From IMG/VR virus record IMGVR_UViG_3300021108_000002, positions 1 to 57,446 of that record: a stretch of DNA of 57,446 nt. One strand, 5' to 3'. The position numbers were made by a program, and so were the translations under genes. The notes under the pieces are model-generated. The model had not been told where the DNA came from and ran no database searches. It was given only the letters and a program-made list of their open reading frames with translations. Position 1 is the stretch's first letter; each line of letters opens with the position of its first letter. The stretch is from a virus. Taxonomy: Duplodnaviria > Caudoviricetes. Shown in pieces: positions 3,506-26,747 of this stretch.

Positions 3506-4101
3506 TATGATAAATATGCTCTACCGGCTACGGGTTGATTAAAGTAAATCTTAAGTCTGTTATTATCAATATACTCTATTGCTCCTTGTATATCTGCACC
3601 AGTTAAATCTTCTATACGCACATTAGGATTTAAGTTCATTCCATGAACTACATCCCACATGGTGGAAGCTGTTTGTTGTGTAAAAACAAAAGAACTATTT
3701 TGATTAATAGTAATGGCAGGATTTAAGTTAATTCTAGTTATACATCCACCAGAGTTAATCTCTATAATATTTTGACCTGCTTGTTGTGTACTCATGTAGT
3801 CTAAACCTAAAGCAGGACCTTTTCCATCTTCAGACATAAAGTAACCTGTGCCTCCTTTAGAATATAATACATCATCATACTTTACACCTAACCAGGTTTT
3901 AAGTTGAATTGTAGTTTCAGATAGAGCTCCATCATCTTCATTAGCTTCCCATTCAACTAACTCTTTTCTCATAGAGATAAGTTGGTTGTCTTGGTCTGGC
4001 TTACAAGAGTCAATACCGTAACGCATCTGCTTATACAGACGGTGCATTACATCAGCAAACTGCTTATTATATTTAACTCTGTTCTGTAGATACGTTCTCA
4101 T
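3505..4101 (-). CDS. Tail-associated structural protein
   Basis: 198 aa; C-terminal WDVVHGMNLNPNVRIED module paralogous to neighbour; abuts neighbour start codon. Confidence 0.6.
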   Translation of the reverse strand: MRTYLQNRVKYNKQFADVMHRLYKQMRYGIDSCKPDQDNQLISMRKELVEWEANEDDGALSETTIQLKTWLGVKYDDVLYSKGGTGYFMSEDGKGPALGLDYMSTQQAGQNIIEINSGGCITRINLNPAITINQNSSFVFTQQTASTMWDVVHGMNLNPNVRIEDLTGADIQGAIEYIDNNRLKIYFNQPVAGRAYLS

Positions 4102-4237
4102 TTTGAGTTTTAATCTGATTAATTAACTGCTGTTCGTACAAAGATATACAATTTGCACAAACTCTGATTCCATTGGATGCTATTCTATCTTGGCATCCGC
4201 AAGAGATTTGGGTTCCACAATTTGAACACTGTCTCAT
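4073..4237 (-). CDS. Small Cys-rich protein, 54 aa (not in ORF track)
   Basis: MRQCSNCGTQISCGCQDRIASNGIRVCANC..., preceded by AAAAACCAAA leader like neighbouring genes. Confidence 0.6.
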   Translation of the reverse strand: MRQCSNCGTQISCGCQDRIASNGIRVCANCISLYEQQLINQIKTQNENVSTEQS

Positions 4238-4259
4238 TATATTTGGTTTTTAGTGAGCT

Positions 4260-4817
4260 TTAACAGTTTGTTCCACAAAGTCCGTTGGTAATTTTATCCA
4301 ATCTTTTCTTTGCGTATAACAACAGTTCCATACCTGCTTCAGGACTATGGCAGTATTCCACCTTAGCCTTTGCTGCATCTATAAAACTTTTTATCAATCT
4401 TAATTCTATAAGTTTTTCTTTTATGTCTGCATCTGGTTCACAAGCACCCATCTCTAGTTCACACATAAGATTGTAATATCTATTTACAGTTTGTGTTACA
4501 CGAAGATGGTTATATTCCACTTGAACTATGCTGTTTGGAGACATAGAATAATTAATAACATAGATACCATCTGGAAGTGGTTGTACTGCTTCACTGCATC
4601 CTGTCTTTTGTAAACCTAAAGTACAGGCTGTTAGTGTGGTGTTAAATCCAGGTAACATCTCAATATTTACAGGAAGATTAAATCCTGGAGAAGTAATACT
4701 TAGAATACCGCAGTCTTTTCCAACTCCTTCAGCATATATGCTGGTATCAAAGATACGTAAAACCTTAATATTGTTAGTATCAGGCAGCTCTAAACTTAGC
4801 TGATGTTTGCTTGCCAT
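4260..4817 (-). CDS. Hypothetical virion protein
   Basis: 185 aa ORF in structural block, downstream of a GTATATTA motif. Confidence 0.55.
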   Translation of the reverse strand: MASKHQLSLELPDTNNIKVLRIFDTSIYAEGVGKDCGILSITSPGFNLPVNIEMLPGFNTTLTACTLGLQKTGCSEAVQPLPDGIYVINYSMSPNSIVQVEYNHLRVTQTVNRYYNLMCELEMGACEPDADIKEKLIELRLIKSFIDAAKAKVEYCHSPEAGMELLLYAKKRLDKITNGLCGTNC

Positions 4818-24744: not shown

Positions 24745-25323
24745 ATGTTACTAAAAGAAAGAGACTTTGATCATAACAGGGATGAATTTCATGAAGCTAT
24801 GAATATTCCTGGTTATATTAGAACTAAATGTCGTGAGCGTATTTTCTTTGCAGCTTTCTCAAATGCTCTACAAAGAGCTGAGTTGTTTGAAGATGAAGAT
24901 GATGCTCCTAAAGACATGTCTACCGTTACAGGTGACCTACAACGTTGTCTTAAAATGATCAACGATCCATTAGAATATGAATACACTTTACTTACCTTTT
25001 ATGGTCATCAGCGTATGGCTATGGAAGCATATAGTAGATATAAGTATTTAAATTCATCGTCTCAGTCTAAAGAAGATAAAATTAAGTTAAGTATTATTAA
25101 CTTGATGATGGATCTTAAAGAAAAACAAGAAGACGAAGAAAATAATAGTAAAGAAGATGATGAAATAGATAACATTACGGTTAATACAACCATTAAGAGA
25201 ATATCTATTGTTAAAAGTTCACTTTATAACTTTGATACATACTTAAAACTAGTATCTAAAAAGTTAAGCAGTCGACCAGACAGTGACTTTAATGTAGATG
25301 ATTTCTTGAAGGACTATCTTTGA
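24745..25323 (+). CDS. Hypothetical protein
   Basis: 192 aa ORF. Confidence 0.65.
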   Translation: MLLKERDFDHNRDEFHEAMNIPGYIRTKCRERIFFAAFSNALQRAELFEDEDDAPKDMSTVTGDLQRCLKMINDPLEYEYTLLTFYGHQRMAMEAYSRYKYLNSSSQSKEDKIKLSIINLMMDLKEKQEDEENNSKEDDEIDNITVNTTIKRISIVKSSLYNFDTYLKLVSKKLSSRPDSDFNVDDFLKDYL

Positions 25324-25342
25324 TTAGGGTTAGTTAGTAGTT

Positions 25343-25379
25343 TGTAGAGGAAGGTCTTTGGCCTCCTCTACATTTTTTC
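25343..25379 (+). terminator. Rho-independent terminator
   Basis: TGTAGAGGAAGGTC-TTT-GGCCTCCTCTACA followed by T7. Confidence 0.75.
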
Positions 25380-25390
25380 TACTATATTTG
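25357..25390 (+). promoter_or_regulatory. Bacteroidota-type promoter (-33 TTTG / -7 TAnnTTTG)
   Basis: TATATTTG at 25383-25390, TTTG 22 nt upstream. Confidence 0.5.
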
Positions 25391-25428
25391 TATAACAACA
25401 GTCATAAACCACACACAATACATGATGC

Positions 25429-25716
25429 ATGAAAAGCACAAATCCACGTTTACAAAAAGGCTTTGGTCAAGTCTCTAATGAAGTGATGAGAAACCCAGAG
25501 TTATCTTTGAAAGACAAGGGCTTGTACGCATATCTATGTACGTTTGCTGGTAGTCAAACTAATGAACTTATTGTAAGTGTATACCGCATGGCAGATGAAT
25601 GTGGAACAAGTCCGTCATCTATAAAGAGAAGCATAGATACTCTTGTATCTATGGGAATTATAGATAGACTCTTTATGGGTAAGGGTAACACTAGAAAAAC
25701 TATTATATTAAAATAA
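25429..25716 (+). CDS. Helix-turn-helix protein (HTH_36 / replication-initiator N-terminal-like)
   Basis: GFGQVSNEVMRNPELSLKDKGLYAYL...SPSSIKRSIDTLVSMGII. Confidence 0.7.
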   Translation: MKSTNPRLQKGFGQVSNEVMRNPELSLKDKGLYAYLCTFAGSQTNELIVSVYRMADECGTSPSSIKRSIDTLVSMGIIDRLFMGKGNTRKTIILK

Positions 25717-25719
25717 TAT

Positions 25720-25792
25720 AGTCAGGTGGCTGTAATTGGTAACAGCGGTGCAATATTGCATAGAAATGCAGGTTCAAGTCCTGTCTTGACTA
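25720..25792 (+). ncRNA. tRNA-like RNA with collapsed anticodon loop
   Basis: Acceptor AGTCAGG/CTTGACT, D-arm GCTG-TAATTGGTAA-CAGC, T-arm GCAGG-TTCAAGT-CCTGT; anticodon arm GTGCA-ATAT-TGCAT has only a 4-nt loop. Confidence 0.75.
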
Positions 25793-25877
25793 TATATTGA
25801 TATTAGCTGATTGTATTAACGTCATGTAAGTCATTGGCCATCGGCCAGCATTGGCTTGGTATAGTAGCTATTTAATT

Positions 25878-26054
25878 AAAGGGTCTGATCTGAGGAGCTA
25901 TATAGCGTATTAACTAAATTAGTCAGGGCAGTATCAAGTTGAGCGGTTCCGTCACTCAGTGGTTGCAAACTAAGAGTGGTCATACCTAGTAACAGTCGAT
26001 CAGAACAGCACTAGACCCATAAGAACTATGGAACCCTTGGATAGACCCTTTTTT
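25878..26054 (+). ncRNA. Putative structured ncRNA domain
   Basis: Closed by AAAGGGTCT/AGACCCTTT; internal helices GGTTCC/GGAACC, CACTC/GAGTG, CTAGT/ACTAG; no ORF in track. Confidence 0.5.
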
Positions 26055-26059
26055 AAGAC

Positions 26060-26262
26060 ATTACCAAATTGAAGTCAGTGGCAATAAGACCGGCCACGTG
26101 AAATGTCCCATGTAACAAGTTATGTGGAGCCATTATAAAACCGGACATTTGGGAGCAGTTAATGAAATCTCCATGTATGGAAGCTACTTATACGTTACGT
26201 GTAGCAGAACGCACTTATAAACAGACGGTAAATCGTTCCAATGGTGCCCCGAAAAAGTAATT
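26060..26262 (+). ncRNA. Putative structured ncRNA domain
   Basis: Helices GTGGC/GCCAC, AAATGTCC/GGACATTT, GGAG/CTCC, GCTAC/GTAGC, GAACG/CGTTC. Confidence 0.45.
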
Positions 26263-26270
26263 AACGAACC

Positions 26271-26304
26271 ATAGAGGATAGATATAACGTCTATCCTCTA
26301 TTTT
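26271..26304 (+). terminator. Rho-independent terminator
   Basis: ATAGAGGATAGAT-ATAAC-GTCTATCCTCTAT followed by TTT. Confidence 0.75.
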
Positions 26305-26315
26305 AAAACTAGATT

Positions 26316-26747
26316 ATGAAAACAGAAGATATTATTAACAAGTATCCTAAGATATTTGAAGATTACCAAGGTAATCCTAATGGAATTAATTGGCATGGTG
26401 TACCAGATGGCTGGTTACCAATTATAGATAAACTATGTGGTTGTATGCAATCATATATAGATCATAACACTACATATACAAAAGATGGACCTATAAAATC
26501 TATGCAAGTTAAGTGTACCCAAATGAAAGAAAAGTTTGGAGGACTACGTTTTTATGCTGATAGTCATGATGAGATCATAGAAGGTATGATAGAAATGGCT
26601 GAATATATGTGTGATAACACTTGTCAAGACTGTGGATCTGAAGAAGATCTCGGTGTAACATCTAATTGGATAAGTGTATTATGCAGAAATTGCGTAATTG
26701 CAAATGGTGATAGAGCTATGAACGCTTGGAAACCTAAAAGTAAATAA
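26316..26747 (+). CDS. Conserved phage protein with QxKEKFGxLRFY motif
   Basis: DGWLPII...QMKEKFGGLRFY...CQDCG...CRNC. Confidence 0.7.
   Translation: MKTEDIINKYPKIFEDYQGNPNGINWHGVPDGWLPIIDKLCGCMQSYIDHNTTYTKDGPIKSMQVKCTQMKEKFGGLRFYADSHDEIIEGMIEMAEYMCDNTCQDCGSEEDLGVTSNWISVLCRNCVIANGDRAMNAWKPKSK

Follow-up and report, generated by a model that had tools for sequence, protein, structure and literature searches.

Structured RNA modules in a gene-free island of a freshwater crAss-like phage

We identified a string of folded RNA modules, here called D0, D1 and D2, in a gene-free gap of a phage sequence. We consider it probable, at roughly three chances in four, that this gap of a freshwater crAss-like phage holds, one after another on the + strand, independent genes whose products are stable structured RNAs, and that it represents one version of a variable island. 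The modules are folded, conserved, separable and devoid of coding capacity, and sequence of D1 and D2 is present in RNA libraries. They are undescribed RNA families, of a kind that was glimpsed in phage phi14:2 but not described. The initial annotation of this DNA had suggested an undescribed RNA system. Tandem structured, covarying RNAs of no described family are indeed what we find; the notion of a single system did not hold, as the RNAs form a string of separable modules.

The window, meaning the whole stretch of DNA analysed, is a record of 57,446 bases with a completeness of 44% by CheckV estimate. The portal, the large terminase and the major head protein that it encodes fall into PHROG families of crAss-like phages. 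Matches of the portal by tblastn were to crAss-like phages of Bacteroides, Flavobacterium and Cellulophaga, the best being Leptolyngbya phage Lbo-JY46 (33% identity), and near-complete genomes of relatives measure 120-130 kb. The stretch is nearly complete in metagenomic DNA runs that carry a lake or freshwater label. Judged from these matches, the source is a freshwater crAss-like phage.

The gap at 25717-26315 (599 nt) contains no ORF of at least 50 aa; among such gaps of the window, it ranks second in size after 777-1673. An ORF-free island of about 500 nt, among the largest in the window and GC-richer than its flanks, had been noted earlier, and both points are borne out, with GC in 200-nt windows reaching 0.41-0.425 over 25800-26199 versus 0.275-0.37 in the flanks. 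Under alternative genetic codes (table 4 and TAG=Q, with TGA read as W and TAG as Q), no long frame appeared in the gap. The folding energy gave z = -2.27 on the + strand, where 1 of 100 shuffles was as good, versus -0.61 on the - strand. Two further stretches among the largest ORF-free gaps at the 50-aa threshold, 777-1673 (897 nt) and 1-560 (560 nt), contain no Rfam family at gathering score.

The borders named in the initial annotation are both present: a tRNA mimic (Rfam tRNA RF00005, 39.1 bits against a cut-off of 29) on the left and a 12-bp hairpin followed by UUUU on the right. The position then described, downstream of a helix-turn-helix (HTH) gene and between the mimic and a terminator, was likewise borne out. 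The features are as follows.

25429-25716, + strand: winged-helix gene (95 aa), Pfam HTH_36
25720-25792, + strand: tRNA-like element, Rfam RF00005
25804-25870, + strand: D0, closing helix P0 around a GC hairpin, with covariation
25878-26054, + strand: D1, closing helix, model R1, with covariation
26064-26152, + strand: D2a, three-way junction, with covariation
26158-26265, + strand: D2b, helices P4-P6, with a candidate pseudoknot
26271-26304, + strand: terminator-like hairpin (12 bp, 7-nt loop, UUUU) that ends D2

Searches against Rfam 15, at gathering scores for the whole window and at E ≤ 10 over 25300-26400 and the isolated modules, returned only tRNA matches. The cmscan comparison that had been proposed earlier thus left D0, D1 and D2 unmatched even at E ≤ 10. 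GOLLD and ROOL, to which the region had resisted assignment, show no similarity here either: neither 25800-26058 nor 26055-26270 matched these or any other large Rfam ncRNA at E ≤ 10.

Relatives were gathered by several routes. IMG/VR was searched with two flanking proteins, which yielded 11 and 18 loci, and blastn of the gap against these loci revealed graded similarity (87%, 73%, 71% and lower) in a mosaic layout; blastn against 50,697 phage records gave no match. From the first alignments we built two covariance models, R1 covering 25877-26054 and R2 covering 26051-26308. We then searched metagenomes, viral contigs and species genomes with a degenerate pattern made from both strands of the D1 closing helix, which retrieved 39 metagenome, 18 viral-contig and 6 species-genome stretches. 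R1 matched 15 of 29 sources (E ≤ 1e-5) and 36 of 52 new loci (E ≤ 0.01). R2 matched 9/29 and 19/52 sources at E < 1e-10; the 52 new loci contain 16 full and 3 truncated copies together with one weak partial match. Neither R1 nor R2, at E ≤ 0.01, recovered any of the 6 stretches that the pattern had found among 185,579 species genomes, and we therefore take them as chance; the pattern requires 23 fixed or degenerate bases, and divergent cellular copies would escape it.

Counts refer to one locus per contig after removal of duplicate contigs, with 18 of the D2 matches kept (removed loci include L002, L004, L008, L015, L022, L023, L032-L040, L047, L062, L071, L073, L087, L088 and L090-L093). On this basis, relatives occur solely on phage-like contigs and comprise 36 distinct D1, 24 D0 and 18 D2 sequences, a set biased toward conserved helices because all homologues came via neighbouring proteins or conserved sequence patterns. 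A lack of covarying homologues had been named beforehand as grounds for rejecting the RNA reading; homologues were found, and their helices are kept by compensatory changes in D0, D1 and D2. Lbo-JY46, the nearest cultured relative, is matched by neither R1 nor R2, and R1, run on the initial 9 kb of phi14:2, gave no convincing match (13 bits at best), so the families are narrow.

Even the most distant loci conserve a block of about 70 nt just ahead of D1. This block had been interpreted as a spacer and promoter; it is itself a folded module, D0, in which a 15-bp closing helix P0 (25804-25819 with 25856-25870, bulged A25810) encloses a GC hairpin, GGCC-AUC-GGCC (25834-39 with 25843-48). The hairpin annotated near 25827-25858 is present as this inner hairpin of the larger module. 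Across 24 sequences, P0 is 92.2% paired, 11 of its 15 pairs have changed on both sides, and the G-U pair beside the bulge is invariant (24/24). D0 lies about 2-8 nt upstream of D1 in 16/19 D1-bearing sources scanned. A loose -35/-10 pattern for a sigma-70-type promoter upstream of D1 fits only 3/26 loci; given this and the folding of the block as D0, we assign no promoter there.

D1 is about 162-233 nt long, with an interior of about 100 to 170 nt that carries large insertions and deletions. A domain at 25878-26054 had been recognised from the window alone and proves real, and its closing helix, described as 9 bp, is instead one of 17 bp with a single bulged A. This helix, P1, pairs 25878-25895 with 26035-26051 (bulged A25888) and is extended by the 4-bp P1b (25902-25905 with 26026-26029); R1 scores 162 bits on the window's D1. 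In 36 distinct sequences, 96.3% of P1 and P1b cells are paired, versus 21-56% when slid; 9 pairs have changed on both sides, and 0/500 shuffles reach the covariation score. Seven consecutive P1 positions, including the G-U pair beside the bulged A, are invariant, and the pairs on either side covary. Six distant members have P1b shifted by three bases, with swaps of their own (CUGU/GCAG, UAGU/GCUA, CAGU/GCUG and CUAU/GUAG, in an alignment read by eye). Most D1 copies end in a U-run, located at 26049-26054 in the window, and all three near-complete relatives searched have one copy per genome. Candidate interior helices can be seen by eye, for example UUAGU/ACUAG replaced by UUACC/GGUAG. A CTGATC/GATCAG pseudoknot had been proposed for this domain. 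Both words are present in the window, and comparison of the 36 sequences gives it no support: the 5' word is fixed (CTGATC in 32/36, CTGATT in 4/36) and is part of P1, and the inner word is missing in 16/36 without compensation.

Could D1 mimic a known rod-like RNA, serving as a 6S-like decoy for the host RNA polymerase or as a Y-RNA-like partner of Ro? Its size of about 180 nt, its long bulged closing stem, the conserved unpaired GCGUAUUAAC and CCAUAAGAA, the variable apical part and the 3' U-run would suit such an RNA, and the closing stem and conserved unpaired stretches are compatible with 6S RNA. The GGUC/GACC words and single bulge also recall what we take to be the Ro-binding helix of Y RNAs. 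Against these resemblances, neither the 6S model nor a Y RNA / YrlA model was matched at E ≤ 10, whether over 25300-26400 or on isolated D1. We found no TROVE/Ro gene in the window or in the records of 5 relatives, of which 4 are at least 92% complete, and no RtcB gene in the window. Single-sequence folds of the D1 interior disagree with each other, and a rod shape is not consistently predicted. We consider mimicry of 6S or Y RNA rather unlikely.

The closing helices of D0 and D1 carry one and the same invariant motif: 5'-CUG, a bulged A and a U opposite 5'-R-UAG, with a G-U pair. Scanning for the motif with flanking pairing found D0 and D1 in tandem in 16/19 D1-bearing sources scanned. A stricter scan retained only D1 in the window, at a mean of 0.02 matches per shuffled window (50 shuffles), and a looser one added three isolated matches, at 1684-1833 of the window (minus strand), in L067 and in L041. 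The invariant G-U pair and many variable G-U pairs of D0 and D1 are compatible with the + strand only. The invariant paired bases could also mark a site at the DNA level, which is conceivable because the upstream gene encodes a DNA-binding fold.

That gene encodes a 95-aa protein with a Pfam HTH_36 domain (E 1.3e-9). PHROGs 270, 8102, 428 and 186, whose profiles are 308-455 positions long, match its residues 5-91. Its similarity to phage replication-initiator and DnaD-like families is thus confined to their N-terminal domain. This domain is a protein of its own in the clade of the window, beside D0-D1, and in L028-L030 it forms the N-terminal domain of initiator-like proteins of 312-343 aa. 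Distant phages have a full-length initiator-like gene followed by a gene of about 430 aa. D0-D1 always lies directly downstream of the 95-aa HTH gene, and R1 finds D1 there in 11/18 HTH-protein loci; the remaining loci are cut short, are missed by R1 (L025) or contain distant full-length initiator genes with no D1. Just past a 192-aa ORF, a GC-rich hairpin followed by a T-run (25336-25375, + strand; seen by eye and unlisted by the terminator scan) could end the upstream transcription unit ahead of the HTH gene.

These observations allow the gap to be read as a replication origin or other DNA-level element, in which the winged-helix protein would bind repeated GGTCTG/CTGAT and ATAG-type sites and any transcript would be a by-product, an R-loop or a primer RNA, as at T4 or ColE1 origins. 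The reading draws on the match of the HTH_36 protein to the DNA-binding N-terminal part of initiator families alone, on the constant adjacency of its gene to D0-D1, on the invariance of the motif bases while neighbouring pairs covary, and on the recurrence of GGTCTG and CTGAT words upstream. It accounts poorly for pairs up to about 170 nt apart that compensatory changes and G-U pairs maintain, the latter being mismatches in DNA, and for the D2, tRNA-like and tmRNA modules, which lack such a link; furthermore, inspection by eye, rather than by a repeat finder, revealed no iteron array or tandem repeats. We judge a DNA-level element to be unlikely.

D2 consists of six nested helices in two sub-domains, D2a and D2b, in 18 sequences. 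The earlier description of a domain at 26060-26262 with at least five helices is thus confirmed. Pairing in D2 amounts to 94.0%, versus 31-40% when slid, with 13 pairs changed on both sides and 0/500 shuffles reaching the score. D2a is a three-way junction of P1 (26064-69/26147-52), P2 (26079-82/26093-96) and P3 (26108-11/26124-27), and a short helix of 26105-07 with 26144-46 is possible. D2a P1 is 100% paired in the 18 sequences with 3 double-sided changes, and P2 and P3 have 2 each. In D2b, pairing reaches 98% in P4 (26158-63/26260-65), where 3 pairs have changed on both sides, and 97% in P5 (26177-82/26236-41), where 2 have done so; P6 is a hairpin (26183-87/26201-05).

D2b may also form an H-type pseudoknot of 4-5 bp between 26211-14, inside P5, and 26244-47, just outside it. 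The words pair across lineages as GCAC/GUGC, CAGG/CCUG, CAGA/UCUG and GGUUC/GAACC. In fixed columns, 73.6% are paired, a figure that reflects a one-column alignment shift, and a helix of 4-5 bp arises in 5-39% of shuffles of single sequences. Given this chance rate and the fixed-column value, we call the pseudoknot a candidate, one that is suggested by the four covarying word pairs and not by single sequences. A different pseudoknot, CCATT/AATGG, had been proposed in the initial annotation; its words are in the window, and comparison lends it no support, as both occur together in 1/18 sequences, the window alone. The window also contains frames of 32 aa within D2, at 26162-26260 and 26122-26220, which are intact in only 3/18 and 4/18 sequences; the other relatives (15/18 and 14/18) break them by stops or frameshifts. 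D1 has no ORF common to relatives. The conserved small ORFs that had been raised as a counter-explanation are therefore absent from both modules.

The hairpin at the right end pairs 26271-26282 with 26290-26301 (12 bp) and is followed by UUUU; the consensus terminator scan did not list the hairpin at 26271-26304. A hairpin of differing sequence occupies this place in 14/18 D2 copies. The next start codon, at 26316, lies 11 nt beyond the window's hairpin, and D2, with its many conserved unpaired stretches and its candidate pseudoknot, has an aptamer-like aspect, so a cis-regulatory leader could be imagined, a riboswitch or attenuator in which a sensor and the terminator at 26271-26304 would control the downstream 143-aa gene. 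The gene after D2, however, differs among relatives, being a 143-aa, 91-aa or 189-aa ORF, and in L041 and L031 the 143-aa gene is placed differently relative to D2. The hairpin is missing in 4/18 D2 copies, D1 stands directly before a gene in L016 and L018, which lack D2, and before D2 elsewhere, and no alternative anti-terminator pairing was found. We therefore regard a cis-acting leader as very improbable.

The element at 25720-25792 has intact acceptor, D and T arms and encodes no CCA. Its anticodon stem ends in a loop of 4 nt instead of the model's 7-nt anticodon loop, and ARAGORN called no tRNA at 25720-25792; we therefore describe it as a tRNA-like element rather than a working tRNA. The same element occurs in the nearest relative (L013/L042), with G6-U/G7-C of the acceptor stem changed to G6-C/G7-U, and the 73-nt form is limited to the window and L013/L042. 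Other relatives have longer versions of 93-125 nt, with a hypervariable middle and with acceptor, D and T arms as in the window's element. All six are matched by Rfam tRNA (31-44 bits) and missed by ARAGORN.

L062, 1681-1786: long tRNA-like element, Rfam tRNA
L089, 8862-8976, - strand: long tRNA-like element, Rfam tRNA
L044, 105-206: long tRNA-like element, Rfam tRNA
L074, 458-564: long tRNA-like element, Rfam tRNA
L059, 2277-2401: long tRNA-like element, Rfam tRNA
L058, 11973-12065: long tRNA-like element, Rfam tRNA

Five of the six share the acceptor, D and T arms with the window's element, and their anticodon and variable regions are wholly different between phages. Their D arm reads like what we take to be that of tRNA-Leu.

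The island of seven relatives contains a tmRNA gene (L024, L021, L058, L089, L067, L049 and L061). No tmRNA was found in four close near-complete genomes, and the window gave no match to RF00023 or the permuted forms at E ≤ 10. The relatives' tmRNA genes span 418-671 nt (L058 12076-12501; L089 7076-7493, - strand; L024, L021, L049, L061 and L067), and their tags are unusually long, at 26 aa, ending in ...VAIAA in two ARAGORN-called copies. L058 unites D1, D2, the tRNA-like element and tmRNA, with D2 beside the tmRNA; since it has both, D2 is not a simple substitute for tmRNA. The possibility that D2 is a tmRNA remnant was also rejected, as the D1 and D2 profiles gave a best E of 0.14 against 8 phage tmRNAs. 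The record of L058 further contains a Pistol self-cleaving ribozyme (RF02679, 6162-6225, + strand, 44.3 bits against a cut-off of 34.5), about 4 kb upstream of its D1.

Decaying remnants of protein, tRNA or tmRNA genes, or a miniature inverted-repeat mobile element, now without function, would explain a tRNA-like element that lacks a normal anticodon loop, an HTH gene that looks like a truncated initiator and the inverted repeat that bounds D1, but they are hardly credible given compensatory changes that keep the helices though relatives' HTH proteins are just 48-52% identical, a single copy per genome in a fixed place, profiles unlike the relatives' tmRNAs and the lack of a conserved frame.

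The combination of modules varies between phages. D2 is missing from one of three near-complete genomes, in L016 and L018 a gene follows D1 directly, and in L041, L031, L058 and L044 the spacing between D1 and D2 is about 760-950 nt. D2 and the tRNA-like element are optional, and the modules are separable.

Small parts of the stretch are contained in six metatranscriptome runs, and contigs of four of them (X19-X22) were placed on it. X20 yielded one contig of 204 nt that lies wholly on 25854-26056 and another of 165 nt on 26084-26247. X22 has four contigs over D1 and one of 187 nt on 26080-26266, and X21 has one contig on 26179-26308. These three runs stem from three studies, and their contigs lie on D1 and D2; such contigs attest presence in an RNA library, which may contain DNA, rather than transcription. 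The same runs have no contig on the HTH gene (25429-25716) and a single 38-nt X22 piece (26505-26542) on the 143-aa gene, although uncovered parts prove nothing. The contig cover of X19 is confined to 25542-25749.

A row of RNA genes accounts better than any rival reading for the long-range compensatory pairs, for the modularity and for the change of downstream genes. The gap is situated among small plus-strand genes, in what we take as the early region, and tmRNA and long tRNA-Leu-like elements share the island in relatives. The modules would be transcribed early, possibly as one precursor, and their long closing stems may release or stabilise them. We speculate that D0 and D1 might act in trans as protein-binding RNAs, with the CUG-A-U / R-UAG motif as a docking or cutting site for the same protein in both; the phage itself might encode this partner, or it might be a host factor that processes or binds RNA. 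D2 would serve as an optional accessory RNA, folded compactly with a pseudoknot.

A bolder and more tentative extension is that D0-D1 represents a new class of phage ribonucleoprotein RNA, with tandem motifs for a dimeric or repeated protein, and that together with tmRNA, tRNA mimics and D2 it forms a swappable toolkit of stable RNAs that reprograms host RNA metabolism or translation early in infection. We regard this as possible, with the odds against it. Candidates for the partner in such a ribonucleoprotein class would be a host factor of RNA processing or transcription, or else the winged-helix protein encoded next to D0-D1, if it acts on RNA.

CrAss-like phages rank with the most abundant of known viruses, and to our knowledge their early host-takeover biology is almost unexplored. 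The only transcriptome study that we located, on phi14:2, reports abundant, stable early ncRNAs without giving them an identity. The locus studied here supplies sequence families, folds and boundaries for such RNAs of crAss-like phages, and indicates that they are modular, exchanged between phages and tied to tmRNA and tRNA mimics in one island. Unknown intergenic transcripts thereby become defined, testable RNAs, and the invariant helix motif of D0 and D1 offers a handle for finding a protein partner. A literature search on ncRNA, tmRNA and phage 6S in crAss-like phages or Crassvirales returned no description of these RNAs; the supplementary tables of the phi14:2 preprint, which lay outside that search, may hold transcript coordinates.

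Several known systems bear comparison. Like GOLLD and ROOL, the RNAs are conserved, highly structured and phage-borne, and often lie near tRNAs; they differ in having no Rfam match and in consisting of separable modules of about 70, 180 and 250 nt rather than one RNA of 500-800 nt. RNase III processing stems occur between the early genes of phage T7 and around rRNAs, and here too long, irregular, bulged closing helices join module ends, with a motif in tandem in D0 and D1. D1, however, has a conserved interior of about 140 nt, which a mere processing signal would not need. In the tRNA region of T4, tRNA genes occur together with the stable RNAs species 1 and 2, of unknown function. The island shares with such phage tRNA/tmRNA clusters the interleaving of tRNA-type genes with small stable RNAs in one direction and the terminal stems that close modules, but its tRNA-type element cannot decode, given the 4-nt loop, and the RNAs beside it are of greater size and form families of their own that are new.

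The closest parallel is phi14:2, in which two long intergenic regions yield early, abundant and stable transcripts of unknown function; according to the preprint, which presents no structures or families, these RNAs lie at the g004-g005 and g005-g006 junctions (10.1101/2020.03.07.982082). Phage phi14:2 is likewise crAss-like, with long ORF-free gaps among small genes in one direction, and expression was measured there, whereas here it is hinted at by RNA-library contigs. In the genome of phi14:2 (L100, NC_021806.1), we found an Rfam tmRNA match at 4031-4502 (+ strand), with 46.0 bits against a cut-off of 47 and an E of 3.6e-16. It has typical ends, 5' GGGGUCGA and a 3' T arm with ACUCCA, and in the GenBank record the region is free of annotated genes and no RNA gene is listed. 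By the gene junctions given in the preprint, this match falls in the g005-g006 junction, that is, in the abundant early RNA (10.1101/2020.03.07.982082). By this Rfam match, a tmRNA lies in the same island of phi14:2, as it does in distant relatives of the window.
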